From NCBI GenBank assembly GCA_022664555.1, contig GCA_022664555.1_4839.1: a stretch of 23,185 nucleotides of DNA; one strand, written 5' to 3'. Source of the stretch: Escherichia coli (lineage in GTDB: Bacteria; Pseudomonadota; Gammaproteobacteria; Enterobacterales; Enterobacteriaceae). The translations under genes and the position numbers were made by a program. Under the pieces are notes generated by a model. That model searched no databases. It was not told where the DNA came from and was given only the letters and a program-made list of their open reading frames with translations. Below, one piece after another: positions 9,020 through 23,185 of the stretch (within the stretch, counting starts at the first letter, position 1; the number at the start of each line of letters is the position of its first letter).

Positions 9020-12019
9020 TCAACCTTTCTTCTTTTGCATCATGGCAAGAAGGTTCACACGGCGCTTGTGTGACCAGCCGACCACGTCGAGGATAGACTG
9101 AATCGGATCAATGAAGGACTTCTCAAAGGCCGCCTGATAATCCACCCATTTGCCCAGACCAAGCTCCTCGGGGAAGAACTCAGGATATGCAAAGTAATTC
9201 TGGCCGAATGGGTTGCCCGGCTTCAACAACACCATCTGTACCTTATCACCCGACTCGATCATCGGTAGACCCAGATCTTCGTTCTTCTCAACCAGACGGT
9301 TGTAACCCACACAAGCCTTTGCAGCAAAATGAGCACCAGAGATGAACGATCCGTCAGCAGCCACACACTTCTCTATGTCGGACACGCCTGACGCCTTGGC
9401 GATATCGTCTACAGAGAGTTTCATGTACTCCTCTTTGTACTGGGAGATGAGCGTCTGTACTTCCTCTTCGGTGCCGAGTAGGATCTTCTCATAGCACTTG
9501 ACAAGACGCTCACGACACCATTCCGGCGTGGTGGACTTGCGGGCTTCCAGACCTTTGAACTTGATCTTCGGCTTCTCGTACTTGATACCCTCACTGTCGT
9601 ACACGGCCATGGCATACATCTTCTTGGCTCGCCAGACAGCGGCTGACGCAATGACCTCACGCTCCCACACCATGCGCTGTTCAAATCCGTTCATGGTGTT
9701 ACACAGAAGCTGTGCCCACTCATTGGTCTTCGGCTGGTAGTTGTCTTTGATCCATTGGTCGATATTATCAACCATAGCATGATGGTCAGTAACATCAGGC
9801 CACAACTGCTTGACAAGACGCTCAATGCAGATGTAGTTGGAGTCGGTATCCCCTGCGATGACGAAGTCCTGGCCTGTTGTACCACACAGCTTGTTCAGAT
9901 AATCATCGGTGTAACGCTTGTTCCACTTGTTGATCAGCTGACCGGATGTGGTGATGGCTTCGGCAATGTTGAGGTTGAAGTACTCTTTGAACCAGACGTT
10001 TGAGATCGCGCCATAACCTGCGTTCATCAAGATCTTCAGACCTTGCTGTAGGGTATCTTGAGCGACGCCCAGGTCTTCCCACTTCTTCATCACTTCGGTC
10101 AGGGCATCAAGATCAATGTTCTTGTGCTCTTCATACCACTCTGGGTCATAATAGCGAGACTTCATGGCAGACTCAAGATGGAAGTCACCCTTCGACATCT
10201 CTTTACACCAGCCAGCCCACTGCTCATACTTCAGACCCTTAGCTTTCTCTACTTTACGGTCGCTGTAGATACCACGCATGATTTCAGACAGGAACGACAT
10301 CTTCTCGTTGCTGAAGAATTGAACGTTCGGCGTGAACGACACGTTGTAACGGCGCAGGGTTTCAAAGTGGAACTCACCCAGGGCAACCAACTCATCAACA
10401 ACCTGCAGGCGTTCGTCAACCGCACGCAACAGCTTGTCGTGAAGGGCTTTCATCAACCGACGTTTGTGCATCGGCGTTGCCATGTTATTCATCTGAGCAG
10501 CCAGCTCTTCACACATAGCCTCAATGATCTCGCGGCGCTGGTGTTTGTCGCCAACGATAGTCTCTGGACCGAGGTTGTACTGCTGAATGATGTGAGGATA
10601 CAGGGAGTTCAAATCTTCCGAGAAGACCCAGAAGTAGATTCCTGGTGTCACATCCATGACGTATGCACCCTCAAAGTCGGTCGGACCATCGTATACACGC
10701 TGGATCTTAGGCACTACCCCCTTCTCGTACAGGCGATAATAGCACATCGCCAGCCACGGAGCCACAGTGCCCAGACCGTCTTCATAGTTGGACTTGGTGC
10801 GGTACGCAAGGACGAACATCAGCTGGAGCAGACGCAGCTTATGTTCAAGTCGCCATACCAGCTTAACGTCTTTGATACCATATCGGGTGTGTTTGCAGTA
10901 GTCGTTGAAGTACAGATCAAAGAGCGACTTGCTCTCACTGTAGTCCATCTTCTTCTCACCCAGCTCACAATACGCAATCCAGTCAAGAGAGTAGCGTTCA
11001 CGGGTGGTGTACGTGTGTTTCTTGTAGATCTGCATATAATCGAGCATAGGACAGCCCACGAACTGATACGTCGTGATATCGCCCTTCTTATCGCGAATGA
11101 TACGCTTCTTAATGATACCCCAAGGACTCAGACGCGACGTTTCAGCCTCACCCAGAACCTGATTCATGCGCTCAACAAGATAAGGGCTATCAAACGTCTC
11201 AATGTTCCAGCCAGTCCATCCGTCGAACTGACGCTCCGACCAGAAGTCTAGGAACGAGCGCAGCAGATCTTGTTCGGTGGTGAACTCCTGATAAACAACC
11301 TCAAGGCCGCCGATCTCTTTGTCTTCGGTGTCGTATGCGAATTTGTTACGATCTTTGGCACAGGGCATACCCCAGACCATGAACTTATTGGTCGCCATGT
11401 CCTGAAGCTGGATCAGGGTAATGGGGAACGCCGCATTCATGTCTTGGGTGATCTTACCGTTGCTGTCAATGATAGGGAACTTATCAGTGACGTTGTTGCT
11501 GATAAAGGAACTGGGAAAGTGCTCACGGACAAAATCATGGTTGGCCAGAACTTGTTTATGGAAGCGGCGAATGCGCGCCTCATTTCCTTTGAACGTCTGC
11601 TGCTCAATGGTTGGGTGAGGGAATGGACCTTTGGTCATCTTTCCATCTTTCCACCCGGCGGAGAACACTTCGATATCGAGGTTAGCAATATGGATGTTGG
11701 AATAATCCGGCTCAATCTTTCCGGGAAAGCTATGGGCAATGAACTGGTATGCATAATCGGTCTGCCCGTAAATGGCAGCACCCTGGACTTCCTTGTACTC
11801 TTCAAGATAGTTGTCAGCGTCACGCATGGAAGGGAACTGCTTGGCTACCAGGGGTTCATTGAGAAGGCCGACCTTTTCAACATTTGAATAGTCAGCCGTG
11901 GGTAAATAGAGAGTGGGTTCGAATTTCTTTTTCAACAGACGGCGATTACCCATGTCATCTGCAATTCGAATCAACAGGTCATTGCCCCTGCGGGCAACGT
12001 TCGTATAGAAAACGGTCAT
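9020..12019 (-). CDS. 43: family-B DNA polymerase, T4 gp43-like (999 aa)
   Basis: 3-kb track ORF. Exo I motif (ANLDIEVF), polymerase motif A (SEDLNSLYPHII) and motif C (IAGDTDSNYI). The N-terminus (FY...QFPSMRDA) resembles T4/RB69 gp43 as recalled. GGAG SD 6 nt before the ATG at 12019. Confidence 0.95.
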   Translation of the reverse strand: MTVFYTNVARRGNDLLIRIADDMGNRRLLKKKFEPTLYLPTADYSNVEKVGLLNEPLVAKQFPSMRDADNYLEEYKEVQGAAIYGQTDYAYQFIAHSFPGKIEPDYSNIHIANLDIEVFSAGWKDGKMTKGPFPHPTIEQQTFKGNEARIRRFHKQVLANHDFVREHFPSSFISNNVTDKFPIIDSNGKITQDMNAAFPITLIQLQDMATNKFMVWGMPCAKDRNKFAYDTEDKEIGGLEVVYQEFTTEQDLLRSFLDFWSERQFDGWTGWNIETFDSPYLVERMNQVLGEAETSRLSPWGIIKKRIIRDKKGDITTYQFVGCPMLDYMQIYKKHTYTTRERYSLDWIAYCELGEKKMDYSESKSLFDLYFNDYCKHTRYGIKDVKLVWRLEHKLRLLQLMFVLAYRTKSNYEDGLGTVAPWLAMCYYRLYEKGVVPKIQRVYDGPTDFEGAYVMDVTPGIYFWVFSEDLNSLYPHIIQQYNLGPETIVGDKHQRREIIEAMCEELAAQMNNMATPMHKRRLMKALHDKLLRAVDERLQVVDELVALGEFHFETLRRYNVSFTPNVQFFSNEKMSFLSEIMRGIYSDRKVEKAKGLKYEQWAGWCKEMSKGDFHLESAMKSRYYDPEWYEEHKNIDLDALTEVMKKWEDLGVAQDTLQQGLKILMNAGYGAISNVWFKEYFNLNIAEAITTSGQLINKWNKRYTDDYLNKLCGTTGQDFVIAGDTDSNYICIERLVKQLWPDVTDHHAMVDNIDQWIKDNYQPKTNEWAQLLCNTMNGFEQRMVWEREVIASAAVWRAKKMYAMAVYDSEGIKYEKPKIKFKGLEARKSTTPEWCRERLVKCYEKILLGTEEEVQTLISQYKEEYMKLSVDDIAKASGVSDIEKCVAADGSFISGAHFAAKACVGYNRLVEKNEDLGLPMIESGDKVQMVLLKPGNPFGQNYFAYPEFFPEELGLGKWVDYQAAFEKSFIDPIQSILDVVGWSHKRRVNLLAMMQKKKG

Positions 12020-12037
12020 GTAATTCTCCAGGTTATC

Positions 12038-12052
12038 CGTGCCGTTAGCACG
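12038..12052 (-). promoter_or_regulatory. short hairpin in the DNA polymerase 5' leader (possible translational operator)
   Basis: CGTGC-nnnnn-GCACG 5-bp stem about 15-20 nt upstream of the polymerase SD on the mRNA strand. The position is analogous to the T4 gene 43 autoregulatory operator. Confidence 0.3.
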
Positions 12053-12098
12053 TGGGCATATTTAACCATAGAGCCATTCATTGACCAAGGAGTTTATT

Positions 12099-12671
12099 AT
12101 GGCAATCCCCCTCGTTGGTATGATCCCAGGGGCGCTCAAGCAACTCTGGAACCTCGGGACTGATTTGATACAATATAAGAGGGAAGTTGTACAGGCAAAA
12201 CACGACTTCAAGCTGGAGTACATCAAATACTCATCAGATTGTGAGCTGTCTAAGATCACCGAAGTCGGCGTGTCTTGGAAAGACGAATTCTGGACTATCG
12301 TGTTGGCCATACCCGCCATCCTCGTCATGACTGCTCCGGTTGTGGAACTGATTCTGTTCCCTGGTGAGTATCATAAAGGGGATTTCATCAAAGCAGTAAT
12401 CGGTGGCCTTCAGGCACTAGACACCGCACCTGAATGGTATACCTATTCGTTATTGACAGCAATTAGTGCATCATTCGGTATCAAAGGCTACAACCACTAC
12501 AAAAGCAACAGGCGAAAAGCCCAAGCTATGGATGCTCTCAAGCAATTTGGGGTTCGGGTCGTACAGAAAGATCCCACTGTTGTTACTCAGTCGGGTGCTC
12601 CCGATCTTGAGTCTGCTCCCCCAGCTGGGTCTACTGCGACCTCTGGTGCGTGGCCTGATCTGAAGAAATAA
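12099..12671 (+). CDS. membrane protein (190 aa)
   Basis: Track ORF 12081..12671 (TTG start) trimmed to the ATG at 12099 with a canonical AAGGAG SD 6 nt upstream. Two hydrophobic segments (AIPLVGMIPGAL; FWTIVLAIPAILVMTAPVVELILF). Diverges from the polymerase gene. Confidence 0.6.
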   Translation: MAIPLVGMIPGALKQLWNLGTDLIQYKREVVQAKHDFKLEYIKYSSDCELSKITEVGVSWKDEFWTIVLAIPAILVMTAPVVELILFPGEYHKGDFIKAVIGGLQALDTAPEWYTYSLLTAISASFGIKGYNHYKSNRRKAQAMDALKQFGVRVVQKDPTVVTQSGAPDLESAPPAGSTATSGAWPDLKK

Positions 12672-12677
12672 GTTCAA

Positions 12678-12702
12678 GGGGAGGAAACTCCCCTTTCTTT
12701 TG
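12678..12702 (+). terminator. intrinsic terminator
   Basis: GGGGAG-GAAA-CTCCCC (6-bp stem, GNRA-type tetraloop) followed by TTTCTTTTGG, just after the stop of CDS 12099..12671. Confidence 0.75.
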
Positions 12703-12713
12703 GTGTTTAGGGA

Positions 12714-12926
12714 ATGAATGTGGTAAACAAGAGATTGCTCGTCACCCAAGGCGGGGCGACGATAGTACGCGGAAGGATCTATGAACAAACACAGCTGGGC
12801 GATCATAAGACGCGCCTGACTGTTAAGGCTCCCGATGGTGGTTGGCCGACAAAGGTGATTGTCCCAGACGGTCTCATAGAACGAGGGACGGCGACGTACA
12901 GGGGAGCAGAGTTCAAAATTTATTAA
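12714..12926 (+). CDS. small hypothetical protein (70 aa)
   Basis: Track ORF. Start ambiguous: ATG at 12714 has AGGGA only 1-2 nt upstream; GTG at 12720 would give better spacing. Confidence 0.45.
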   Translation: MNVVNKRLLVTQGGATIVRGRIYEQTQLGDHKTRLTVKAPDGGWPTKVIVPDGLIERGTATYRGAEFKIY

Positions 12927-12943
12927 AATATTTATTGAATAAA

Positions 12944-12972
12944 GTTTACTTCTTCAATAACTGGCGTATACT
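12944..12972 (+). promoter_or_regulatory. sigma70/T4-early-like promoter candidate for CDS 13022..13579
   Basis: GTTTAC (12944-12949), 17-bp spacer, TATACT (12967-12972). AT-rich upstream region containing the palindrome TTTATTGAATAAA (12931-12943). Transcription start would be about 40 nt before the ATG. Confidence 0.4.
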
Positions 12973-13021
12973 TCTAATTGTAGTACGAACAAACAACAAT
13001 CTGAAGAGAAGGAAATACATC

Positions 13022-13579
13022 ATGGCAATCGAAATTATCGCTCAATCCAAATCTGGTAAAACTGTAATGTACGGCACTGAAGAAGGCCGCGCAATCACCA
13101 CTCTGGGCACAATTGACGGTTCCAACCCAGTGAAAGGCGGTCGCTACCTGGTTGAATACGGTTCACACCTGCTGATGGTAAGCAAAGTCGATGGTCGTGA
13201 AATCATGATTCCCCGCAAAGAGTACTTCGACTCGCGCATTGAAGCCATGAACTTCTTCCTTTTCCAGGAACGTCACGAACTGTTCGTTGAAGCGAAAGAC
13301 GCAGGCCTGGACGATGCGACTGCCGAACTGATCGCTGAAGGTAAAATGACTCTTGAGGCTGCTCTGGGTGACATGGATTGCGATGCTGAAGCCCATTACA
13401 TCGAATATTCCGCTTATCAGAATGAATGCGAAGACGATCCTGAAGATGACGGCTTCGACCCTGACCTTCACGGTGGCGAGGATGACAATACTCCTTCCCT
13501 GGAAGTGATCATGGCAGGCGGTCAGGCCGCTTGGGAGTGGCAGAACGAAAAGAACGCCTGGCTGGATTCTCACCTTTAA
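13022..13579 (+). CDS. hypothetical acidic protein (185 aa)
   Basis: Track ORF 12842..13579 trimmed to the ATG at 13022 (AAGGAAA SD, spacing about 8). The 5' extension in the track overlaps the preceding gene and the promoter-like region. Confidence 0.6.
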   Translation: MAIEIIAQSKSGKTVMYGTEEGRAITTLGTIDGSNPVKGGRYLVEYGSHLLMVSKVDGREIMIPRKEYFDSRIEAMNFFLFQERHELFVEAKDAGLDDATAELIAEGKMTLEAALGDMDCDAEAHYIEYSAYQNECEDDPEDDGFDPDLHGGEDDNTPSLEVIMAGGQAAWEWQNEKNAWLDSHL

Positions 13580-13589
13580 TGTGAAGAAA

Positions 13590-13620
13590 TAAAGAAAGGG
13601 GCTTAACGCCCCTTTTCTTA
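13590..13620. terminator. bidirectional intrinsic terminator between convergent genes
   Basis: AAAGGGGC-TTAAC-GCCCCTTT stem (GGGGC 13598-13602 / GCCCC 13608-13612, extended by A-T pairs) with T-tracts on both strands. Confidence 0.7.
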
Positions 13621-14076
13621 TTCTTCCCAGAAGTCTTCGTCGTCCCCGACAGCAGCCAGTTCCGTGTCCAGTTCTTCATCGGTAAACGGTGGCAGCACCC
13701 CGTTCTGAATCAGATAATCCATCTCATCGTCTTCCAGCTGCAGGTCGGTGGCAATATACAGCGCTCCACTGCCTTCTTCGTCCGTCTCGATGCTGTATGA
13801 AGTGTATGGCACTCCATTCACTGTAATGATGATAGAGGTCGGATCCTTGGGATCTACGTGCGCCTCGAACGGCACACCATCAATCGGTGCATCTTCCAGG
13901 AAGGTAGCAAGTGCTACGGCGGCGCGGACAACATCAGTGCCTTCAACGCCCGCATAGATCTCTTCCGCGCCTGTCTCTTCACGATCAAACAGCTCAATCG
14001 TGATACCGTCTTGAACACCAGTCCATACAGGGATGTCATTGGTGTATTCTGATTCAAACAATTTGGAGGTTGGCAT
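13618..14076 (-). CDS. hypothetical acidic protein (152 aa)
   Basis: Track ORF; ATG at 14076 with GAGGAA SD 5 nt upstream. Strongly Asp/Glu-rich. Confidence 0.6.
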   Translation of the reverse strand: MPTSKLFESEYTNDIPVWTGVQDGITIELFDREETGAEEIYAGVEGTDVVRAAVALATFLEDAPIDGVPFEAHVDPKDPTSIIITVNGVPYTSYSIETDEEGSGALYIATDLQLEDDEMDYLIQNGVLPPFTDEELDTELAAVGDDEDFWEE

Positions 14077-14101
14077 GTTGGGTTCCTCAGTGGGTTAGCC
14101 A

Positions 14102-14212
14102 TATGGGGTATTTAGGCTTCCCGCTTGGCGAGGCCTGGTTTGTACAGGGCACCTCTAGGAAATATTGGAGGAAGGTTTTCATAGATACCCCACACGGATT
14201 GTATGGGGTATT
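14102..14212 (-). promoter_or_regulatory. intergenic array of ATACCCC(A) repeats, with a late-promoter-like CTAAATAC
   Basis: On the minus strand AATACCCCATA occurs twice (plus 14102-14113 and 14202-14212), with an inverted copy (plus 14185-14194) that forms an 8-bp hairpin ATACCCCA / TGGGGTAT (14185-14192 / 14203-14210). The proximal copy reads CTAAATACCCCATAT about 30 nt upstream of the ATG at 14076. Confidence 0.35.
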
Positions 14213-14221
14213 CAGGAGGGA

Positions 14222-15415
14222 TCAGGAAGGGGTGAAGTCGTTTACAGGAACTGTTTCAGGGATAGCCAGCTCAGGGCATGCTGCCTTCATCGACTCGATG
14301 TACGGCTTGCTACCCACAATCCAGAACAGAGTGTTCTCATTGAGCAACTCGGGCTTGTGTTGCTGAACCCAGGTCATGACCTTGCCTTCATAGCGAGGAT
14401 GCAACTCAATATCGCCCCACTGATATTCCATCAGGTCATTATAACGAACCCAATTAGTGGTATGAAGATCCCAATGGTGTACCTCAAAGCGAGGAAGCAC
14501 GACCTCTGGCTCTTCCTTCTGCCTGATACCACTTAGGAGGCCAGCCAGCGAAACGCTCTTAGAGGCATGCTGAAGCTCCTTCTTGCCGTGTACATAGTCT
14601 GGGTTGTCGTGATAGCGACGGGTAAAGTCGACAATGTGCGGCAGATTGGCATGTTTGCCGATGATGCGCAGACGACTCTCGATAAAGTCCAGACGGTTCG
14701 GACCGATGCCAATCAGATACACACGCTTCAGATTAGGCTTCGGATGCATTGCCAGCCCGGTCAGGATGCTTGTGCAAGAGTTGCACGATCCGGCTGGGAT
14801 GATCAGGTCAGTAATGTGATCAGGAATGTTGGCAACCTGCTCGCCACCCAACATATGGAACCCAGCAATGCGCTCAGGGGAGTGGGCTGTATGGTCGAGG
14901 GTGATACCATACTCCAGATAATACGCCTTTGGATTCTGTTGTTCGATCAACTTCTTACAGCGCGGCTGGATGGTGCTGTTGTAACCCGAGCCGACGAAGT
15001 TGAACTCACTACCAAACCAGGCTGACATTACCACCATTTCATGGTTCATACAGGTGGTGGGTTTGGTCGCGCCGAGCACAGTAGTTGTCTTGCCGCCGAA
15101 GTGCCGAGAGACTGCTGTCGCCATAGGGGACTGCGGACTACCAACGACAGTACCATGGATGATGTCAGGGGAGCCTCCGGCCTTGAGGTGCTCAACCATC
15201 AACCAGATGGCCTGGCGGAGTTTGCTGCCATTGATGCCCTGCTTGGCGTTGGCATAGTTAGACAGCGGCGCAAAATAATCTTCACGCTTGAACCAGACCT
15301 GCTGGTTGGTTTCGGGATTGACGACAAGTTCGCACGGGGTGTGCTTGTAGAGATAGTCTTCCCAGTGAACCAGATTGCGGTCGAGGGAAAGGGTATCGAA
15401 AATGGTCTTGTTCAT
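14222..15415 (-). CDS. PLP-dependent enzyme, ACC deaminase / D-cysteine desulfhydrase-like fold (397 aa)
   Basis: Track ORF 14222..15436 trimmed to the ATG at 15415 (GGAGA SD, spacing 7). WFKREDY...GINGSKLRQAIWLMVEHLKAGG...IIHGTVVGSPQSPMATAVS matches the pattern YIKRDD...GGNKLRKLEFLV...LIT.GAIQSNH of that family as recalled, including the candidate PLP-binding Lys. Confidence 0.55.
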   Translation of the reverse strand: MNKTIFDTLSLDRNLVHWEDYLYKHTPCELVVNPETNQQVWFKREDYFAPLSNYANAKQGINGSKLRQAIWLMVEHLKAGGSPDIIHGTVVGSPQSPMATAVSRHFGGKTTTVLGATKPTTCMNHEMVVMSAWFGSEFNFVGSGYNSTIQPRCKKLIEQQNPKAYYLEYGITLDHTAHSPERIAGFHMLGGEQVANIPDHITDLIIPAGSCNSCTSILTGLAMHPKPNLKRVYLIGIGPNRLDFIESRLRIIGKHANLPHIVDFTRRYHDNPDYVHGKKELQHASKSVSLAGLLSGIRQKEEPEVVLPRFEVHHWDLHTTNWVRYNDLMEYQWGDIELHPRYEGKVMTWVQQHKPELLNENTLFWIVGSKPYIESMKAACPELAIPETVPVNDFTPS

Positions 15416-15423
15416 TCTATTTT

Positions 15424-15463
15424 CTCCTGTAGACATTGGTTTATCATAGTGTATCTACAGGAG
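15424..15463 (-). promoter_or_regulatory. 10-bp inverted repeat that sequesters the SD of CDS 14222..15415
   Basis: CTCCTGTAGA (15424-15433) and TCTACAGGAG (15454-15463) are perfect reverse complements separated by 20 nt. On the mRNA the 3' arm contains the GGAG SD; the upstream in-frame ATG at 15436 lies in the loop. Confidence 0.45.
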
Positions 15464-15485
15464 TATAGAAAAGGAGAATCTCGGC

Positions 15486-16142
15486 TTATTTCTTGAATAA
15501 ACGAAGGAACTTCATCATGTTTTCCATGAAAGTCGGCTTCTTGACCTTTTGTTTTACCGGAGCGCCCTGATCATTCAGAACACGACTGACCGGAGGAGTA
15601 GGTGGTGTCGGCGCTTTCGTTTCACAGGCCGGAACGATGTTCACGTCATGATGAGAAGACTCAGATGTAGTGTTAACAACATTGTTCTCCTGGACGACAG
15701 GCTTGACGAGATTCTTTTCGTACTCACGCGCCATGGCCTGATACATCAGATTCAAATCCACCAGATCAACAGACTTGACCTTGCGACGACGCCAATTGGC
15801 GCTTTCTTCGCCATAGAAATCATATCCGTTTCTGATCAGCCAGTGTACGGCTTGTTCAAAAGAACCGAAGACCATAAGCGGAGCGCCCTGGCCTTTCTCA
15901 GATTGTTCCAGGCTACTATAACCCATCAATACAACCTGGCCTTTGATACTCAAATCAAACGTCATACCAAGGTTCGGGATGTTTTTATCGCGGCGGAAGA
16001 ACCCGCCATCACGGTAGACGTAAACAGGCGAAAGGAACTCATTCAGAGTACGCTTGACACCCTTGTATTGGAAGAGTCTGACAATTGGAGGGGTGTCATG
16101 GGAAATCACTTCGTTCAATTCCCAGATAGAAACATTACGCAT
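15486..16142 (-). CDS. hypothetical protein (218 aa)
   Basis: Track ORF; ATG at 16142 with GAGGAT SD 6 nt upstream. Proline-rich linker (KAPTPPTPPV) and basic C-terminus. Confidence 0.6.
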   Translation of the reverse strand: MRNVSIWELNEVISHDTPPIVRLFQYKGVKRTLNEFLSPVYVYRDGGFFRRDKNIPNLGMTFDLSIKGQVVLMGYSSLEQSEKGQGAPLMVFGSFEQAVHWLIRNGYDFYGEESANWRRRKVKSVDLVDLNLMYQAMAREYEKNLVKPVVQENNVVNTTSESSHHDVNIVPACETKAPTPPTPPVSRVLNDQGAPVKQKVKKPTFMENMMKFLRLFKK

Positions 16143-16195: not shown

Positions 16196-16261
16196 TTTGT
16201 ATCATTGAACAAACTACGATAAAGGAGGACATGCTTGGGTCGATAAGAAGATAATAAGACA

Positions 16262-16295: not shown

Positions 16296-16352
16296 ATACC
16301 ACATCGATGGGATGGGTTGAAAGACTACACGCTTGCACTGGTACTACCCTAT

Positions 16353-16380
16353 GGGAGAGCGCGTCAGGAGTCGAACCTGA
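16353..16380 (-). pseudogene. tRNA 3'-end fragment (T-arm plus acceptor 3' strand), no anticodon arm found
   Basis: Minus strand reads TCAGG-TTCGACT-CCTGA-CGCGCTC-T-CCC: a perfect 5-bp T-stem with canonical T-loop, then a 7-nt acceptor-like strand. I could not find a matching 5' acceptor, D-arm or anticodon arm within tRNA distance. Confidence 0.35.
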
Positions 16381-16512
16381 AGTCGTCGACGTAGAGAAAG
16401 CTATTTGCATTTCACTATCCTCGCCGCGATTTTCTTAACTTCCTAAACACCCCGATTACGAGAGAGTCGACATGCACATCTTCTAACTCTTCAGGAAGTC
16501 ACGCCCGTAATT

Positions 16513-16601
16513 TGGCGGAAGGTGAAGGATTCGAACCTTCGGGGGCTAAAAGCCCCACTCGATTAGCAATCGAGTCCCTTAAACCTCTCGGGCAACCTTC
16601 C
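16513..16601 (-). tRNA. tRNA-Ser (anticodon GCU), class II with long variable arm, CCA encoded
   Basis: Reverse complement folds by hand into a cloverleaf: acceptor GGAAGGT/ACCTTCC (7 bp perfect), anticodon stem CTCGA/TCGAG with loop TTGCTAA, variable arm GGGGC-TTTTA-GCCCC, T-arm GAAGG-TTCGAAT-CCTTC, discriminator G, CCA. Confidence 0.9.
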
Positions 16602-16821
16602 AATTTGGACGGGCTTCGCACCCGATTGAGCATTTGATCTACCGTAGCCCAACTCCCCGCGCTTCTCAGCGCCGATTGGTTAACTGGCGACCAGTGCCTT
16701 CTGGTTCGATCTCCTAGAAGTTTACATGCTTTGCTGCCGACCATTTCTGGTAGTTAGGGCATCGTTTCCGATGTGGAGTCACCCCATTTTATACACAGCT
16801 GGCTGCAATGCTTACTGTGTT

Positions 16822-16898
16822 TGGTGATCCTGGTTGGATTTGAACCAACGACCAATGAATTATGAGTTCACTGCTCTAACCGACTGAGCTACAGGACC
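16822..16898 (-). tRNA. tRNA with CAU anticodon (elongator Met, or Ile2 if lysidine-modified), CCA encoded
   Basis: Reverse complement: acceptor GGTCCTG/CAGGATC, D-arm GCTC-AGTCGGTTA-GAGC, anticodon stem GTGAA/TTCAT with loop CTCATAA, T-arm GTTGG-TTCAAAT-CCAAC, discriminator A, CCA. G1-C72 pair argues against an initiator. Confidence 0.88.
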
Positions 16899-17802
16899 AA
16901 ATTATTGTGTGACCAACCAAGGACTGTCAACCCTTTATCCCGTTTGTGCATGATCAGTTCATGCAGGCCTCTTTGTGCTGCCTCACGGCATGCGCTTCTG
17001 TTGGTCATTGGCTTACACTGTGGCCTCACAACAGGCGTTTATTTTTCCAGGGCTTTCCACTTGCAAGTCTTGACCATACAGGGATACGGGCTTACAAGAT
17101 CGGGTTGGACACAACTTTGATGGCTCTGGTATTAAAGATCCCGCGTCACCCATAGACATGGTTTATAAATCCAGAGCCATCAAAGTTGCAACCAATGTCG
17201 CAACTCGCAGCTTCCATGCAGAAGAAACTTGTCCTCTAACGCTCGGACCAAACGAGGCTGGCTGGTTGATTCAGAGCCGCTGGTTGCTCCAGCAAGCATG
17301 GGTTGATAGCCCGGCAACATAGAATCACCCAAAGTTGAAGAACACTCAGTGGTACAAGCCAGGGATACCAATTTCAGGTCCTTTGCGAGTTCTTTAAATG
17401 CTCTTCATTTTGTGAACTTGAGAATACTACGCCTGTCTCGGGTTTCCCCTTAGTTCGGCCTCCCAGTCCTCGCCGCGCCGGGTAGCTAACCCTGATGGCT
17501 CGTCTGCTACTGAGTTCTTCTTGGTGCCCACCAGTGTCCGGAATGTGTAGGCATCGCAATCTGCAAGGCATGGTCTATTTCACCCAATGCTCTCTCAAGT
17601 TCACAAATCGAAGTGCCCTGACTCAACAGTATAGCCCAATATGCTGTTATCGTCCACCGGATTGGCCACCCACTTCGTAGATCAACCTTTGGGTTTAAGA
17701 TAAATTGTCAAGGCACTTCGATTTGTGTGCCCTTCACCTGCCAGGGATCAGGGCTGATGGCAAGACTTCGCTCACATCTTTCAAGATACTCGTGAGAATA
17801 TC

Positions 17803-17830
17803 CTCAAAGATGTGGGGCCGTTTTTAGGAG
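17803..17830 (-). pseudogene. tRNA 3'-end fragment (T-arm + acceptor 3' strand + CCA), no anticodon arm found
   Basis: Minus strand reads TTGGG-TTCGACT-CCTAA-AAACGGC-C-CCA, the same layout as the two intact tRNAs. No complementary 5' acceptor (GCCGTTT-like) or anticodon stem-loop could be found 60-100 nt upstream. Confidence 0.35.
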
Positions 17831-18803
17831 TCGAACCCAAATGCTTGGCCAGCGCTGACCTTACATCCCATCTGACTTAGGCAACCCACTCCCAGCCCCA
17901 CAACACTCACTACGGTTAAGATTATTGCGTATGTTGTATGGTCTTGCTGGTCACAACTGAAAGGGCACTTAACAGAAGATAGGTCTGATTGCCTCGGATG
18001 ATTTCTCAGTAGCCTAAATGCCCTTACATGTTGTGTGCCCATTATTAATCACAGCGGGCCACTGCGCCGAATTTGGTGATGAGGAATCGGAAGACCTCAC
18101 TGACTTATAGGCTGTTACGCCGCCATCAGAACTTCGGAATCATTAGCAGTTATTTGCTTGGTCAGTTTCTAAAAACCCGCAAAGTCACGCACAACGAAAA
18201 CGAAAACCTGTTTGAGCACAAGACACCATGTCCTGGGTTCACATCGAAGTGTTTGTCTAATGCCCAAACAGCTTTTCGCTTCAGTGGGTTAACTATACTT
18301 TGTAACCCGTTATTGATAAAACCTTTTATTTTTGTTGGCGAGGGTATCACCATCGATTTACCGGAACTTACGCATCCGGCCTCGCCTGTTGGTGATCCTT
18401 CGAATCCGGGAAGATCAGTAGGAACTATGAATCAAGTTAATTCAACCAACAGGAACCTTGTTGCCCTTTGACGCAACATTATGAACCCTCTATGGAAGAC
18501 TCATAATGTTGTGGCGTGATGGAGATTAGCGCCCCCGACCTCCCCTTATACGTTGGTGTCGACTTGCCAACAGGGTGCTCTCTGATTCTGAGCTAATCAC
18601 GCTACAACAGGGAGTTTCGTTCTCCGACGGTCAGTGCGTCCACCGACACCAGCGAGGTTGATATTACGCCTCTATTCGTCACGGTGCCCTGAGACTGGGC
18701 TTTCCTGGTTTCGGGTTCCAGCCCTACTCCCACCGCGCTATTCGCCTCGTGTTTAATACTTTACTACAGCCCAGCTAATTTGAAAAGTCCTCTCCTCTTT
18801 GAG

Positions 18804-18950
18804 CTACACTGCCCACAGCAGTGCGGGCGAACCTTCGCACAAAACCGGATGCGCCGAAGTGGGCGACTGTTTACCGGACTGATCGGGTAGACCCAGGAGA
18901 GTAAAGGTAATCCCGATCAGGAGGATGAGGAGTAACATCATGTAAAACAT
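18804..18950 (-). CDS. small membrane protein (48 aa)
   Basis: Hand-translated ORF below the track cutoff: MFYMMLLLILLIGITFTLLGLPDQSGKQSPTSAHPVLCEGSPALLWAV. ATG at 18950-18948 with a strong GGAAGGGAGGGAA SD 4 nt upstream; TAG at 18806-18804. One N-terminal TM helix. Confidence 0.45.
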   Translation of the reverse strand: MFYMMLLLILLIGITFTLLGLPDQSGKQSPTSAHPVLCEGSPALLWAV

Positions 18951-19007
18951 AGTGTTCCCTCCCTTCCATGCAACTAACTTTACTGCAATTATTTATTGAA
19001 TAAAGCG

Positions 19008-19577
19008 TTATTTTAACACTTCTAACTTCACAATACGACGCAGAAGGTAAACATATTCGCCAGCAGCTTCATGCGTCATATAATGGGTAGAAGGTGTGGA
19101 ATGAGTGTTCTGGGTTTCTTTTAATCCAACACGTTCTGCCCAACCATTAATAGAGTTCCCATAGAAACCGATAATCGCACCAAAATAAATGCGCCCGCTT
19201 TCTGGCTCTAAAACATAGTTGACAGTGAAGCAAATGTCAGAACGAATAGACTCCAGTTTCATACCAACACGACCTTCAGAGAATTCGTTACGAACATATA
19301 AATGACGGAAGCGATCGCGCCGTGCTTGTGATGATTCTTCCAATTCTTGTCGAAGTGAAGAAGTTATGTCAATATTAAATGAAAATGTTGGATTTCGTAA
19401 ATCAGAACGAGCCAACTCTAAGGCAGATTCAATAACGCGGCGGAAATTGATACTTTTACCTGTCAGGCGTTTCACTTCATCGGTGATTGTTTCAAAAGGG
19501 ATTTTCGTGGCGCGTTCCCCTTCGTATTTTGCTAACAAAGGAATAATGTGTTTCATGATTGCTGTGTTAATGTGCAT
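19008..19577 (-). CDS. hypothetical protein in an AT-rich islet (189 aa)
   Basis: Track ORF; ATG at 19577 with GAGG SD about 7 nt upstream. Visibly lower GC and different codon choice from the surrounding genes. No motif I can assign (no GIY-YIG, HNH, Walker or HAD signature). Confidence 0.6.
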   Translation of the reverse strand: MHINTAIMKHIIPLLAKYEGERATKIPFETITDEVKRLTGKSINFRRVIESALELARSDLRNPTFSFNIDITSSLRQELEESSQARRDRFRHLYVRNEFSEGRVGMKLESIRSDICFTVNYVLEPESGRIYFGAIIGFYGNSINGWAERVGLKETQNTHSTPSTHYMTHEAAGEYVYLLRRIVKLEVLK

Positions 19578-19774
19578 TCCGGAGCCTCACTGGATTGATT
19601 AAATGTCTCCGTTATTATATTGGGAGTATGTTTATTGAATATAAACACAGGAATGGCCAATAAAACAATGACAGTGATTATTAATAGGTAAAAACTACTT
19701 TTCTACAACATCAAGAAACTGTATCCTAACGCAGTGCCCTTCGAGTTGTGAGTGTCAACGAACAACGAGAAGCA

Positions 19775-19852
19775 GCCTCCATGGCTGTGGAATGGTGCTG
19801 CCCGCACAGGGCGGTGTTACGAGCGAGGGCGTCAGCCCCCTCGCGAGTTATA
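19775..19852 (+). other. cluster of three GC-rich hairpins upstream of the baseplate operon
   Basis: CAGCC-TCCAT-GGCTG; CTGCCC-GCACA-GGGCGG (one G-T pair); GCGAGGG-CGTCAGCC-CCCTCGC. All lie within about 80 nt in a non-coding stretch; none has a U-tract. Confidence 0.35.
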
Positions 19853-19895
19853 TTCGAATAAATTAAACGCGCGCGAGCCGTTTTGATTCCCGTTG

Positions 19896-19903
19896 GCTAA
19901 ATA
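19896..19903 (+). promoter_or_regulatory. late-promoter-like CTAAATAT upstream of the gp6-like gene
   Basis: CTAAATAT lies 41 nt upstream of the ATG at 19944 and resembles the T4 late promoter core TATAAATA. The same CTAAATA core precedes CDS 13618..14076 on the minus strand. Confidence 0.3.
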
Positions 19904-19943
19904 TCTTCAACACCATATTCAAACTCAGGTGATGGAGATTATC

Positions 19944-21722
19944 ATGGCCACGCAAACAGTCCCTTCACTCGATGTCAGGGCTTTCGAGTATCTTATCAAG
20001 AAGCGCATGAAAGCTGATCCAACTTTCAAGGATTATGACTTTGAAGGTTCTGGTCTCAGTGCAATCGTGCGTATCTTGGCCTCGGATGCCAACTCTATCG
20101 GGTTCATGCAGAACATGCTGAATGGCGAAAGCCATCTTCACTCTGCTCAACAGCGTTCTAATGTCGGTCTTGCGGCCGGGTTCTTGTCGTACACCCCTCA
20201 TAACTACCAGGCGGCGTACCTGTACGCAAACGTCACAGTCACTCCATATGACGCCAGCACGGCTCCGGACACGATTATAATGGATCGCCGCGCGATGTTC
20301 ATTGGGGCGAAGGATGGCAAATCCTACAACTTCACGGTTGAACAACCTGTGAGTGCCTCTCTTGTAGACGGCTCTTACAAGTTCGAGAACATCAAACTCA
20401 TACAGGGTAACTGGCTGTACAAGTCCTATGATGTGGAAGGCAGCGCGATCTCTACCTATGTGATCCCATCTTCTTCCGTGGACATCGACCATATGGTGGT
20501 GCAGGTGCAGGAATCTGAGACATCTGACGTGCGGTCTACCTTCTCACGATACGTAAGCCCGTTCGATTTGAGCCAGTATGCGCAACTTTACTTCGTTGAG
20601 CTGGGGTTGGACGGGATGTACACGTTCGAATTCGGTGATGGGTATATCTGTAAGCGAGTAGAAGACGGGAACGTCGTGTACCTCCAGTATCTGGAGACAG
20701 CTGGTGCAGACGGCAATGACATCACTGCCTTGTCCTCCGCGTCTTCCATCGGGGGATTCAACCTTGTAGAAGTTGAGCTGGTCTCAGAACGTTCTTCCTG
20801 TGGTGCGGACCCAGAGAGCATTGAGGACATCAAGCGCCTTGCTCCGCTGGCTTATCAGGCTGAGGGTGCGGCAGTGGCCGAAGTCGATTATGCTGTGTTG
20901 ACCGAGCGTCTGTTCTCCAACGTCTCCCGCGCCAAAGCATATGGCGGCGACACGCTCTCTCCGCCCGACTCCGGATACGTTTACATTGCTGTGATACCTT
21001 CTGTTGGTGAGGCGCTCTCGGACGCTGAGAAGGCAGATATCGTGGCGACGTTGGACAAGTATAATGTGGGCACGATCACACCCAAGATTGTCGACGCTGA
21101 ACTGACTTATGTTGATGTCACCACCCGCGTGTTCTGGGATCCGACTTCCACGACCTACACCGAAGAGCAGTTGAAGACAGTCGTGAAGAACGGTGTTGTC
21201 AACTGGGGCTTGGGGAACCTAGAAGGATTCGACGAACTGTTCGATAAAGAGCAGTTACAGTCGGACATCACAGACATGGACAGATCGATAGTGTCAAACA
21301 TCACTTCTGTGAAGTATAAGCGCCATTTCAAGCCAGACTATGGGGTACTGGACAGCTTCACGTTCGATTATGGGCGCTCGATTGCATCTGGTTCTGTGCG
21401 TATCAGTGGGTTTAAGCCGCTTCCGGCCGAGGTCGAATTCACTTACTACATACGCGACGTCAGTGGTGTCCTGAATATGTACAAGGTGAGTACAACAGAC
21501 ACGACCAAGGAATATCTGGTACAAGCTGTTGGAACGGTTGAATATGTGAATGGCGTTGTTGAACTCCAGCGCATCACAGTATCCAACAACAACACCCAGG
21601 GAGAGAAAATAATCGAGTCTCCAGACGGTCTTGACCAGAACATTCAGGCCACACAGAATCAGGTGCTCCGCATTGGTGCTGTAACTGTGGAGCCGGAGGT
21701 GCGTTATGTCCAAAGATCTTAA
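19944..21722 (+). CDS. 6: baseplate wedge protein, T4 gp6-like / P2 gpJ-like (592 aa)
   Basis: Track ORF 19893..21722 (TTG start) trimmed to the ATG at 19944 with GGAGA SD 5 nt upstream. The N-terminal region DPTFKDYDFEGSGLSAIVRILASDANSIGFMQNM resembles T4 gp6 (EFLDYDFEGSRLNVLCDLLAYNTLYIQQFGN) as recalled. Confidence 0.8.
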   Translation: MATQTVPSLDVRAFEYLIKKRMKADPTFKDYDFEGSGLSAIVRILASDANSIGFMQNMLNGESHLHSAQQRSNVGLAAGFLSYTPHNYQAAYLYANVTVTPYDASTAPDTIIMDRRAMFIGAKDGKSYNFTVEQPVSASLVDGSYKFENIKLIQGNWLYKSYDVEGSAISTYVIPSSSVDIDHMVVQVQESETSDVRSTFSRYVSPFDLSQYAQLYFVELGLDGMYTFEFGDGYICKRVEDGNVVYLQYLETAGADGNDITALSSASSIGGFNLVEVELVSERSSCGADPESIEDIKRLAPLAYQAEGAAVAEVDYAVLTERLFSNVSRAKAYGGDTLSPPDSGYVYIAVIPSVGEALSDAEKADIVATLDKYNVGTITPKIVDAELTYVDVTTRVFWDPTSTTYTEEQLKTVVKNGVVNWGLGNLEGFDELFDKEQLQSDITDMDRSIVSNITSVKYKRHFKPDYGVLDSFTFDYGRSIASGSVRISGFKPLPAEVEFTYYIRDVSGVLNMYKVSTTDTTKEYLVQAVGTVEYVNGVVELQRITVSNNNTQGEKIIESPDGLDQNIQATQNQVLRIGAVTVEPEVRYVQRS

Positions 21723-22560
21723 TAACGGACACAATGGGGTGAAATATGAAACCCCATTGTTTTACCAGAATGAATTCCCAGTATTCATCGAGTTTATGGA
21801 TACGTTCTTCAACTGGTTGTATCGCCAGCAGGGATTCACCGAAGAGGAGATCTTGGCGTATCTGGCAGACACTGGTGGTTGGGTGAACCCAAATACGGAT
21901 CAGTCTCCTATTGAGCAGTTGATTGACATCAAGAAGCGCAAGACGCCAGGTGCTGAGGCCAAAGACTTCTTGGAAGACAAGTTCCTGACGCGCACGTTTG
22001 AGAACATGATGGCGCTAGACTTCGAAGATTTGCTGGACGTGGACGGTCGGCCATTAATCTCAATGGAAGACAAGAACGAACGCATCGACGATTGGTATGC
22101 TGATTTTGGATTCCAGAGAACGGTTGATAAATCCTTCCTGGAGTTCGGGAAGTTTGTGCCAGTTGGTTCGGACAGTTTGGTGACTTCAGATGGAGACACT
22201 CTCTCTGTGTATGTCGAGGGAACTGAACGCCGGACACTGGACCATGTACGCTGGTTGAAGTTACTTAAACACATTTATCGCATTCGCGGGACGAAGAAAG
22301 CGATTGAATTGTTCTTCTGGATTTACTTTGGTTGCCCAGTGAGTGTGTATTATCCCAAGGAAGCAATTGGTGGCCTGGATGACAACTTTGAATGTGACGG
22401 CGCGACAGGAATGCGTGACGATTACTACTATGATGAATTCACGTATGTGATAAGAGTTCCTGGCAACGTATCTGATTTTGAAGGTGTGTTTGATCGCGTC
22501 TTCCGTCAGCATTTCCATCCTGCTGGGTTTACTGTATTCCTAGAAAGTTCAAGGAGTTAA
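21706..22560 (+). CDS. putative baseplate protein (gpI-like position, 284 aa)
   Basis: ATG at 21706 with GGAGGTG SD 4 nt upstream, overlapping the gp6-like gene by 17 nt. Assigned by position between the gp6/J-like gene and the tail fibre gene; no independent motif. Confidence 0.45.
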   Translation: MSKDLNNGHNGVKYETPLFYQNEFPVFIEFMDTFFNWLYRQQGFTEEEILAYLADTGGWVNPNTDQSPIEQLIDIKKRKTPGAEAKDFLEDKFLTRTFENMMALDFEDLLDVDGRPLISMEDKNERIDDWYADFGFQRTVDKSFLEFGKFVPVGSDSLVTSDGDTLSVYVEGTERRTLDHVRWLKLLKHIYRIRGTKKAIELFFWIYFGCPVSVYYPKEAIGGLDDNFECDGATGMRDDYYYDEFTYVIRVPGNVSDFEGVFDRVFRQHFHPAGFTVFLESSRS

Positions 22561-22562
22561 AA

Positions 22563-23185
22563 ATGGCCGATTTTCTGAGTCGATACACAGGTCAGCAGAT
22601 TGATGCAATCCTTTCTTCTGTTGACGATAAAATAAGCAAGACTGATGTTGTCAACGATTTCGCTGTTGATGATCCGTTGTTCCCTCCTTCAGCTCATTTG
22701 ACATACGAGCTGAAGCGTTCTGTGGATAATATCTACGACACACTGGAAAACAAAGTGATCCGCACCGACGGTGGTGAACAAACGATCAACGGGAACAAGA
22801 CTTTTGCTGCGTTGTTGACAGCCAACGGCGGCCTGGCTGTTCCGGCTGGAAAGAAACTTTCTATCGCGGATGAGCCTACGATAGCGACAGATGGTGTTAA
22901 CCTGAGCATGTTGAGAAAGCATGGTGTCAGTGAAGACACTACCCCACCTGGTTCTGGTTTGGCTGGGGAGTTGTTGACATCCGGATATTACAAATTCAAT
23001 TTGGATTTCACCAAATTGTCTGCGTATACCGGATCAACGCTGCCGACTTCAATCCCAGTACAAACAGATTCTGGAGCGCGTTATTGGACAATGACTGCAT
23101 TTTTTGATGCGTTGTTTGCAGACAACCGATTTGGCGGATATGTGACAACGACAGCGTATGATGCGGATATGCTAAGTTTAGAGTC
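22563..23185 (+). CDS. tail fibre protein, N-terminal part (runs off the window)
   Basis: ATG at 22563 with AAGGAG SD 6 nt upstream; open frame to the window end. Contains a GGEQTINGNKTFAALLTANGGLAV segment resembling the GGQTINGTL...GG motif of T4 gp12 and other fibre proteins. Confidence 0.7.
   Translation, partial: MADFLSRYTGQQIDAILSSVDDKISKTDVVNDFAVDDPLFPPSAHLTYELKRSVDNIYDTLENKVIRTDGGEQTINGNKTFAALLTANGGLAVPAGKKLSIADEPTIATDGVNLSMLRKHGVSEDTTPPGSGLAGELLTSGYYKFNLDFTKLSAYTGSTLPTSIPVQTDSGARYWTMTAFFDALFADNRFGGYVTTTAYDADMLSLE

Follow-up and report, generated by a model that had tools for sequence, protein, structure and literature searches.

A T4-type DNA polymerase with two internal insertions and a tmRNA-like RNA in a 23-kb stretch with the genome plan of the Ackermannviridae

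We analysed a stretch of 23,185 nucleotides from the Escherichia coli assembly GCA_022664555.1 (contig GCA_022664555.1_4839.1; this whole stretch is called the window), which carries a T4-type DNA polymerase gene, tRNA genes and the beginning of a baseplate module. The first-pass annotation had read this combination, in an order that is not that of T4, as the mark of a distant or mosaic phage lineage. We found instead that the window is, with a probability of about 95%, a typical piece of an Ackermannviridae genome (Aglimvirinae, Agtrevirus-like) whose layout is conserved in, and published for, that family; the observed gene order is already known as the ordinary genome plan of the ViI/Ag3-like phages.

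When the whole window was used as a megablast query against 50,697 phage records, 348 records matched it, 30 of which covered at least 80% of its length. The best match was Escherichia phage A221 (96.4% identity over 95% of the window), and vB_EcoM-RPN242 was 96.0% identical, the matches of these two phages spanning 92-95% of the window; Salmonella phage vB_CECAV_050 and Enterobacter phage fGh-Ecl02 were also among the best. Nucleotide identity was about 90% to Shigella phage Ag3 and 87% to Enterobacter phage EspM4VN, and Salmonella phage ViI (Kuttervirus) is a more distant relative within the Ackermannviridae. The matching records belong to this family, with A221 and RPN242 filed in the Aglimvirinae and EspM4VN in Agtrevirus, and the genes of the window follow the same order, orientation included, as those of RPN242, A221 and EspM4VN. 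The window also holds thymidine-hypermodification genes (HMUD2, 502 bits; ADDT, 202 bits; PHROG 3650, 791 bits), as well as baseplate genes, two of them in full and a third with its beginning; the tailspike (tsp) cluster, with the true tailspike genes, lies beyond the right edge and was seen only in relatives. Close sequenced relatives with the same order (A221, RPN242 and others) are members of a family that is well characterised, and a distant or mosaic lineage is therefore not supported.

Relative to A221 and RPN242, the window differs in the absence of a group I intron from its polymerase gene, in small indels, and in one replaced segment (13030-13586). Besides this segment, positions 722-1009, 3407-3854, 15602-15765 and 17889-18063 have no counterpart at the homologous place in these two phages, and represent gene replacement or indels within DNA that is otherwise 94-97% identical. 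EspM4VN has four to five tRNA genes and the window two.

Synteny comparison with the T4 genome (NC_000866) confirmed that the gene order around the polymerase differs from that of T4, and that the T4 neighbourhoods are as stated in the first-pass annotation: T4 gene 43 is flanked by regA-62-44-45 and imm-42-b-gt, and gp6 (660 amino acids) is followed by gp7 (1032 amino acids), gp8-12, wac and 13-23. In the window, regA, 62, 44 and 45 do not adjoin the polymerase gene. As had been noted, a gp6-like gene (open reading frame (ORF) 19893-21722, its real start probably the ATG at 19944) lies some 8 kb away, at 7.9 kb, and is followed by a gene, overlapping its end, for a protein of 284 amino acids (Pfam family PF23786), far shorter than T4 gp7. 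By sequence comparison, the gp6 homologue is T4-type and not P2 J-type. BLASTP aligned it to T4 gp6 with an E value of 3e-30 (24% over 498 amino acids) and to P2 gpJ with 0.04, and Pfam returned Gp6-like_1st (28.5 bits; cut-off 27) and Gp6_C-I (25.9 bits, just under 27) and no Baseplate_J domain (PF04865). The gene that follows, taken in the first-pass annotation for a tail fibre, is the 5' half of a conserved protein of about 396 amino acids (PHROG 3838) with no Pfam or Protein Data Bank (PDB) match, and is not a recognisable tail fibre. Its identity as fibritin (T4 Wac), as annotated in phage LIMEstone1, was also considered and rejected, the BLASTP match to T4 wac (E 0.13) not being significant.

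The late module of the relatives gives the context for these genes. In EspM4VN, gp6 is followed by the 284-amino-acid protein, a 403-amino-acid protein, four tailspike genes and a 1586-amino-acid protein, and then by genes whose products are annotated as head closure (gp14-type), tail sheath stabiliser (gp15-type), small and large terminase, gp18, gp19, portal, scaffold, protease, gp22 and gp23. From gp6 to gp23 the genes thus run as in T4, except that tailspikes replace gp8-gp12. Collinearity with T4 from gp6 to gp23 was reported for LIMEstone1, in which the orthologues of the three baseplate genes are virion proteins confirmed by mass spectrometry and annotated as gp6 (64.8 kDa), 'gp7' (33.4 kDa) and 'fibritin' (42.7 kDa) (PMC3296691). 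A 2024 review described the Ackermannviridae as having a 'more scattered genomic organization' than the Tevenviruses and as lacking gp9-gp12, with vriC on one side of the tsp cluster and three baseplate genes on the other (PMC11721090).

Had recombination brought a T4-type replication gene together with a simple baseplate module of the P2/Mu J-I-fibre type, as the first-pass annotation suggested, one could account for the short protein after gp6 (284 amino acids, like the 176 of P2 gpI and unlike the 1032 of T4 gp7), for its best Foldseek matches, which include small wedge or triplex proteins of simple contractile systems (diffocin, P1, phiCD508), and for the T4 replisome genes not flanking the polymerase. 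We consider such a mosaic very unlikely, however, since the gp6 homologue is of T4 type, the profile of the 284-amino-acid protein matches neither Tail_P2_I nor P2 gpI, the downstream genes of relatives run as in T4 up to gp23, the window has an even GC content (45-53%), and the arrangement is fixed across the whole family rather than recent. P2-type ancestry of the baseplate genes was likewise rejected on direct comparison with gpJ and gpI. The module thus resembles T4 in its gp6 homologue and in the collinearity seen in relatives, and differs from it in having the 284-amino-acid protein, which shows no sequence similarity to the 1032-amino-acid gp7, and in having tailspikes instead of gp8-gp12, where T4 has peripheral baseplate proteins and short fibres. 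It resembles the V-W-J-I-H-G order of P2 in that a wedge protein and a small partner precede the receptor-binding proteins, a generic minimal wedge logic of contractile tails, but there is no significant sequence similarity to P2 and the Pfam families differ.

The assignments of the window and of its individual genes have some weak points. As only 23 kb are at hand, the genus cannot be fixed, although nothing contradicts the family. The family profile of the 284-amino-acid protein gave hhalign probabilities of 0.5% against T4 gp7 and 0.25% against P2 gpI, and neither Gp7 Pfam domains nor Tail_P2_I (PF09684) were detected in it; its AlphaFold2 (AF2) model was of low confidence (predicted local distance difference test score (pLDDT) 60.5), with low template-modelling (TM) scores in Foldseek. 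The match of the putative pyridoxal phosphate (PLP)-dependent enzyme to Pfam PALP (E 1.4e-6) fell below the curated cut-off. Homology of the 284-amino-acid protein to T4 gp7 was therefore not upheld by profile comparison, and the Foldseek matches are suggestive only: nearly all of the best were baseplate wedge or 'triplex' chains (phi812, phiCD508, diffocin, P1, KP1), while the T4 chain 5iv5_BJ came lower (E 0.12, TM 0.21, from the pLDDT-60 model). A gp7-like role may be inferred from the gene's position, the low-confidence model and these low-TM matches, and it is plausible, though not demonstrated, that this protein is a minimal wedge partner in the position of gp7.

The polymerase is encoded by a single uninterrupted ORF of 999 codons and belongs to the T4/RB69 gp43 type of family B by its motifs, its phmmer alignment and its predicted fold, as the first-pass annotation had proposed. 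Pfam recognised DNA_pol_B_exo1 and DNA_pol_B, and residues 2-993 aligned to RB69 gp43 with an E value of 6e-110. The ExoI motif DIE stands at 115, motif A (DLNSLYPH) at 469-476, motif B (NAGYG) at 666 and motif C (DTDS) at 724. The AF2 model had a pLDDT of 90 and a predicted TM score (pTM) of 0.84, and superposed on RB69 gp43 (7f4y_A) with TM scores of up to 0.90.

The enzyme is also, as previously noticed, about 100 residues longer than T4 gp43 (898 amino acids). In a MAFFT alignment with T4 gp43, the additional residues fell into two blocks inside the protein, one of 57 and one of 46 residues (gaps totalling +132 and -32, for an observed difference of +101); they are not terminal extensions. 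In the AF2 model, the first insertion forms a long helix (146-166) and a loop in the N-terminal/exonuclease region, and the second, which lies between motif A and the fingers, forms three helices (pLDDT 92-97); both are predicted to fold as helical additions on the gp43 scaffold. Among 1673 homologues, lengths of about 1000 amino acids persisted to identities as low as 42-50%, among them those of Vibrio phages VAP7 and YC. Intermediate lineages have polymerases of about 965 amino acids, and T4-like and cyanophage enzymes have 830-910; over these lineages the two segments shrink stepwise, from 106 to 90 to 51 residues and from 132 to 110 to 85. The extra residues are therefore two lineage-conserved internal insertions. 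One guess is that they serve as docking surfaces for lineage-specific replisome partners.

The first-pass annotation had proposed a test for an intein or inserted domain in the extra length. The blocks begin TIEQQ... and MATPM... and lack the splice-junction residues of an intein, which has Cys/Ser at its N terminus and a C-terminal His-Asn ahead of Cys/Ser/Thr; their 57 and 46 amino acids compare with the at least roughly 130, in one piece, that an intein needs. An origin of the extra length in an intein, in what is left of one, or in intron sequence that is translated would agree with the presence of a mobile element, a group I intron at codon 473, in the polymerase genes of relatives. We give this explanation practically no credence, as the surplus forms two separate blocks, each below even mini-intein size, that lie at least 40 codons from the intron site, keep their length across the lineage down to 42% identity and fold confidently as helices packed on the enzyme, and as the ORF is continuous with no intron in the window by Rfam.

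The intron itself distinguishes the window from its closest relatives. The annotations of A221 and RPN242 split the polymerase into two coding sequences, and blastn junctions placed inserts of 466 nucleotides (A221) and 1184 nucleotides (RPN242) at a single position of the window, codon 473, inside motif A. The A221 insert is a group I intron (RF00028, 58.8 bits; gathering threshold 50), and no RF00028 match was found in the window. The corresponding coordinates were 11352-11739 in locus L002 and about 10800-11985 in L001, the 1184-nucleotide insert containing a 292-amino-acid ORF. Introns in Ackermannviridae polymerase genes were reported earlier for LIMEstone1 (PMC3296691). The window thus carries an intron-free allele of a gene that has been invaded at motif A in its closest relatives, and would be a natural homing recipient.

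The polymerase gene is embedded in a thymidine-hypermodification cluster, not among replisome genes. Lee et al. (2018) listed ViI gp247 (aG/PT-PPlase2), gp243 (kinase 2) and gp226 (PLP enzyme) among the makers of 5-(2-aminoethoxy)methyl-dU (5-NeOmdU) and noted that hypermodification genes often lie close to the phage DNA polymerase (PMC5889632). By their counterparts in the window (Table 1), 5-hydroxymethyl-dU (5-hmdU) in newly made DNA would be converted to 5-(2-aminoethoxy)methyl-dU by the kinase 2, the aG/PT-pyrophosphorylase 2 and the PLP enzyme. There is a loose likeness to T4 here, in that the polymerase adjoins DNA-modification genes in both (gene 42 and beta-gt in T4); the GC content of the window, about 50%, is a point of difference from T4. 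Beyond the polymerase comes a minus-strand block that holds the two tRNA genes and some 2 kb of structured RNA of the non-coding kind, followed by the late module from gp6 onward on the opposite strand.

The non-coding part of this block, about 2.1 kb beyond the tRNA genes (16900-19000, minus strand), has no credible ORFs and is unannotated, or nearly so, in A221, RPN242, Vi01, KpS110 and IME250. We identified within it an element resembling transfer-messenger RNA (tmRNA), which we hold with high confidence to be a real RNA and which is probably undescribed. On the strand of the tRNA genes, its core contains the frame GCU AAU GAU UCC GAA GUU CUG AUG GCG GCG UAA, encoding ANDSEVLMAA, the variant by which the window differs from its close Ackermannviridae relatives. 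The E. coli SsrA tag is ANDENYALAA. Tags in other phages are ANDDVVLMAA, ANDDLMLMAA, ANDSEMRMVA, ANDSEMRVAA, ANDSEIRVAA, ANDNEMRAAA, ANDNYALAAA, ANEERFLMAA and ANDNTFLAVA; the frame has an alanine resume codon, and 17 nucleotide variants encode AND/ANE...(M/V/A)AA-type products. No in-frame start codon and no Shine-Dalgarno sequence were found for it. The bases at -6 to -4 of the resume codon are A-U-A, which we take to correspond to A84-U85-A86 of E. coli tmRNA. In the Ackermannviridae the core is preceded by a near-invariant 5' extension of about 80 nucleotides and a promoter-like TTRTCA-16-TATAGT, and the copies resembling that of phage Sf11 have a consensus sigma70 promoter (TTGACA-17-TAGATT) directly upstream of the core.

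Both the tag frame and the structure of this core were compared among its copies. Among 17 distinct nucleotide versions of the tag frame, single-site codon differences were synonymous in 246 cases and non-synonymous in 106. The remaining two frames gave 40:428 and 54:378 and contain stops in 14-16 of the 17 versions; the pairs compared are not phylogenetically independent, yet the contrast between frames is large. This pattern points to peptide-level selection on a translated frame, and such constraint would mean that the tag is translated from its start-less frame on ribosomes already elongating. Hairpin H2, in which the loop UCUUCCGAUU is invariant and the stem occurs in at least seven compensatory versions, is followed by an invariant AAAUUCGRCGCA and an H-type pseudoknot. 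The middle pair of pseudoknot stem S1 was C-G in 23, G-C in 11 and U-A in 4 distinct variants and was never broken there; stem S2 occurred as GCCCG/UGGGC, UCCCUGA/UCAGGGA, AUCCCGU/ACGGGGU, GUUCCGU/ACGGAAC, GACGGGAG/CUCCCGUC and others, at least eight versions being compensatory. In a formal count over H2 and S1, from which S2 was left out because MAFFT misaligns it, 95% of cells were paired compared with 86.7% in shuffles, and 24 double-sided changes were seen compared with 4.9 (0 of 500 shuffles reached either value); slid controls were 31-58% paired. H2 and the downstream pseudoknot are thus supported by covariation. A stem just upstream of the resume codon covaries by inspection only (CUUUG/CAAAG, UUAUG/CAUAA, GUCU/AGAC, UAGU/ACUA), and may form a PK1-like pseudoknot with an invariant 5' GUUUU.

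The likeness to bacterial tmRNA comprises a start-less frame of ten codons that begins GCN-AAY-GAY and ends with a hydrophobic residue, Ala-Ala and a stop, a stem or pseudoknot upstream, a stop codon within a hairpin, an H-type pseudoknot downstream, and weak but consistent Rfam matches. It differs in that the phage RNA has no conserved acceptor stem and no G3:U70, and its conserved unit is only about 175 nucleotides and moves between phage families. ARAGORN reported no tmRNA, either for the window or for any of more than 60 further loci. The Rfam tmRNA models scored below their gathering thresholds for every family (RF04321, 20-31 bits against 47, with E 0.005 when only 521 nucleotides were searched; RF00023 matched only an 11-nucleotide T-loop). 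No tRNA-like domain, that is, an acceptor stem with G3:U70, a T-arm and a 3' CCA joined to the 5' end, was recognised.

About 300 nucleotides downstream of the tag, a block that resembles the 3' end of bacterial tmRNA has a perfect T-loop (GGGUUCGACUCC), GGAUGUAAGG and an acceptor-like 3' strand; it is present in the window, Vi01 and IME250, ending CGGC(C/U)CC-A (CGGCUCC-A in the latter two). No 7-bp partner for the acceptor-like strand was found anywhere in the region in Vi01 and IME250, and the partner in the window is local and not conserved. This block may be a remnant of the tag RNA or a non-canonical partner for it. Canonical tmRNA topology was sought with an acceptor stem between the 5' extension and the T-loop block, in a domain A (AAGAGCAU/GUGCUCUU-UCC) and in a domain B (GUUGUGGU/CCACAAC-A), and was rejected in each case. 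The stems of domains A and B occur in many copies and bound variable domains after the core in other lineages; a few of them enclose true T-arms, and none is universal or has G3:U70. They could be lineage-specific tRNA-like domains, processing signals or cassette-bounding repeat elements. In several loci a protein gene begins within 30-100 nucleotides of the pseudoknot, encoding HNH_3+AP2 endonucleases (L019, L076, L084) or a Phd/YefM antitoxin (L018). Because no downstream domain is universal and some copies adjoin protein genes, the conserved functional unit is the tag-encoding core alone. In this it is the converse of the tmRNA of mycobacteriophage DS6A, which consists only of the tRNA-like domain (PMC4131195). 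The endonuclease neighbours suggest homing-type spread of the module. In L019, L076 and L084 the HNH_3+AP2 gene was placed 27 nucleotides after the pseudoknot.

In a sensitive BLAST search with the 2.1-kb stretch, about 185 nucleotides (18017-18201) were 73-83% identical to unannotated DNA in unrelated phages, often beside tRNA genes; these carriers include Cedarrivervirus Sf11, a Schitoviridae podophage, and Chaseviridae phage Faunus. BLAST found the core in 671 of the 50,697 phage records, in several families and almost always without an annotated feature. An exact degenerate pattern matched 79 loci in IMG/VR and two in 185,579 bacterial species genomes, on which count a host origin of the element was rejected. 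Homologues were recorded in loci L006-L009 and L011-L094. Phage ssrA genes had been found only in eight mycobacteriophages and Bacillus phage G, plus the DS6A form (Hudson, Lau and Williams, PMC4131195). In the openly searchable literature, to which our search extended (subscription-only literature being outside its scope), we found no description of the element; in papers on the Ackermannviridae, the word tmRNA comes up solely where the ARAGORN article is cited by its title.

A functionless fragment, left by the decay of an ssrA gene captured from a host, or a remnant of the attP type, would also lack a canonical tRNA-like domain and score below the Rfam gathering thresholds, as observed. We regard this as unlikely, because a remnant would not be expected to occur in 671 phage records of several families against two bacterial species genomes, to show compensatory changes in three helices and mostly synonymous variation in one frame, to carry its own sigma70 promoter in the Sf11-like copies, or to encode tags that differ from the hosts' ANDENYALAA. 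Tentatively, and at slightly less than even odds, the element may represent an undescribed, horizontally mobile class of phage RNA, found in at least five phage families of Enterobacteriaceae: a tmRNA-like module of about 175 nucleotides with a tag frame, pseudoknots and a possible mimic of the SmpB-binding elbow, and without a tRNA-like domain, that would act on stalled ribosomes non-canonically if its tag is translated.

Three routes of action can be envisaged for such an RNA, each with low confidence. In the first, the RNA would enter a non-stop ribosome with its alanine resume codon, filling the empty A site and the mRNA channel, and an ordinary Ala-tRNA would decode the codon there; H2 and the AAAUUCGRCG segment might serve as the SmpB-binding elbow mimic. 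In the second, a lineage-specific, non-canonical acceptor piece would be supplied in cis or in trans, as in two-piece tmRNAs. In the third, SmpB or the ribosome would be drawn off by the RNA acting as a decoy, with another cause behind the codon pattern. Phage-induced mRNA decay or RNA-targeting defence could create the stalled ribosomes for the RNA to clear, and the adjacent homing endonucleases and bounding repeat stems may indicate how the module moves between families.

The rest of the non-coding stretch is unevenly conserved. Across five genomes, invariant positions made up 54-90% of each 50-nucleotide bin between 19010 and 18030 and 58-84% in most of 17310-16910, where a single bin reached 42%, and the stretch from 18010 to 17360 was variable. 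The 'tRNA island' of the first-pass annotation amounts to only two tRNA genes, for Ser (GCU) and Met (CAU); neither ARAGORN nor Rfam found further tRNAs or pseudo-tRNAs in 16-20 kb. A long hairpin conserved in the Ackermannviridae, with 30-nucleotide arms (minimum free energy z score -5.67 against shuffles) has compensatory arms in different genera (AUGGCUCUGG/CCAGAGCCAU and AGGAUACUGG/CCAGUGUCCU), and is probably another structured RNA or a processing site. About 650 nucleotides upstream of the tmRNA-like gene (18360-19010, minus strand) contain no credible ORF, and have 54-88% of positions invariant across three genera. Stems that pair perfectly over a long range (CCUGUUGG/CCAACAGG) occur there, as does a hairpin with ACCA after it; this part may encode one or more further non-coding RNAs.

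Repeats and exchangeable pieces were also seen. The 15-nucleotide motif CACAAnTCGAAGkGC occurs four times (0.33 expected), at 17602-17616, 17713-17727, 17952-17966 and 19736-19750, its copies forming nested inverted-repeat pairs, one of them 1.76 kb apart. A palindrome with 19-nucleotide arms (17773-17814) is 'empty' in the window and encloses inserts of 110-190 nucleotides in EspM4VN, IME250 and Vi01, those of EspM4VN and IME250 including a tRNA-like element; related stems (AAGAGCAU/GUGCUCUU and GUUGUGG/CCACAAC) bound variable inserts in other phage families. The palindrome and these stems look like cassette-bounding or RNA-processing stems. Positions 17054-17102, 17252-17332 and 17951-18036 match unrelated phages at 85-90% (Klebsiella KP13-26, 144 kb; pKP-BM327-1.2, 77 kb; Escherichia phiWec188, 150 kb), and the non-coding island looks like a patchwork of RNA modules that can be exchanged. 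Crystals of a ribozyme of the hepatitis delta virus (HDV) family from an Ackermannviridae phage have been reported (PMC13635239). The window gave no HDV-like match at E <= 0.05, and the ribozyme therefore lies elsewhere in such genomes or in another lineage.

The features of the window are collected in Table 1. Among them, the GIY-YIG gene is wedged between the kinase 2 gene, whose start it overlaps, and the next gene, and is present but unannotated in A221.

Table 1. Features of the window, with coordinates in the numbering of the whole stretch.
Feature	Coordinates	Strand	Basis or remark
aG/PT-pyrophosphorylase clade 2 / amino acid:DNA transferase (ViI gp247 type)	4148..5383	-	Pfam ADDT 202 bits; RPN242 annotation
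5-hmdU DNA kinase 2 (ViI gp243 type)	5941..6846	-	Pfam HMUD2 502 bits, full length; RPN242 annotation
Free-standing GIY-YIG (SegD-like) homing endonuclease	6839..7525	-	Pfam GIY-YIG 33 bits; RPN242 annotation
5'(3')-deoxyribonucleotidase-like protein	7840..8619	-	Pfam NT5C 35.5 bits; RPN242 annotation
DNA polymerase, gp43 type, 999 amino acids	9020..12019	-	Pfam, phmmer, AF2/Foldseek, motifs
Polymerase insertion 2, residues 513-558 (46 amino acids, after T4 residue 449)	10346..10483	-	MAFFT, AF2
Empty homing site, codon 473	10600..10602	-	blastn junctions, codon mapping, Rfam in A221
Polymerase insertion 1, residues 137-193 (57 amino acids, after T4 residue 123)	11441..11611	-	MAFFT, phmmer alignment gap, AF2
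Conserved protein, PHROG 2524	12099..12671	+	Orthologue annotated in relatives
Conserved protein, PHROG 4823	13022..13579	+	Stretch differs from A221/RPN242
Conserved protein, PHROG 3852	13618..14076	-	PHROG match
Putative PLP-dependent enzyme, 5-NeOmdU pathway (ViI gp226 type, by inference)	14222..15436	-	PHROG 3650 791 bits; PLP annotation in several relatives
Conserved protein, PHROG 4050	15486..16142	-	PHROG match
tRNA-Ser (GCU)	16513..16601	-	ARAGORN; Rfam 55 bits
tRNA-Met (CAU)	16822..16898	-	ARAGORN, Rfam; sigma70-like promoter at 16930-16901
Conserved long hairpin	17105..17195	-	Folding energy against shuffles; compensatory changes between genera
T-loop-containing block, GGGUUCGACUCC ... 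CGGCCCC-A	17811..17887	-	Resembles bacterial tmRNA 3' end
tmRNA-like RNA	18037..18290	-	Ackermannviridae-specific 5' extension 18290-18207 and ~175-nucleotide core 18210-18037
H-type pseudoknot of the core	18066-18037	-	
Invariant AAAUUCGGCGCA of the core	18074-18063	-	
Hairpin H2 of the core	18100-18079	-	
Stop codon of the tag ANDSEVLMAA	18117-18115	-	
Resume codon GCU	18147	-	
Promoter-like TTATCA-16-TATAGT	18319-18292	-	
Conserved 189-amino-acid protein, PHROG 3788	19008..19577	-	Annotated in all relatives
Baseplate wedge gp6 homologue, 592 amino acids from ATG 19944	19944..21722	+	Gp6-like_1st 28.5 bits; PHROG 219 615 bits; BLASTP
Putative baseplate wedge subunit of 284 amino acids (PF23786), gp7 position	21706..22560	+	Pfam 490 bits; Foldseek; LIMEstone1 orthologue
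Third baseplate-associated gene, 5' part (207 of ~396 codons)	22563..23185	+	PHROG 3838 378 bits; relatives

As first posed, the finding re-describes the known genome plan of the ViI/Ag3-like phages, and its value lies in filing the window correctly. The precise map of two lineage-specific insertions is modestly useful, as they belong to a polymerase that copes with 5-hmdU-containing DNA, and of similarly modest use is the evidence for the intron-free polymerase allele. The tmRNA-like RNA would flag a blind spot in annotation based on ARAGORN and Rfam. A tag-encoding RNA without a tRNA-like domain in unrelated virulent phages would raise testable questions on ribosome stalling and proteolytic tagging during infection, and if either the first or the second route of action is true, these phages would have their own ribosome-rescue and protein-tagging system.

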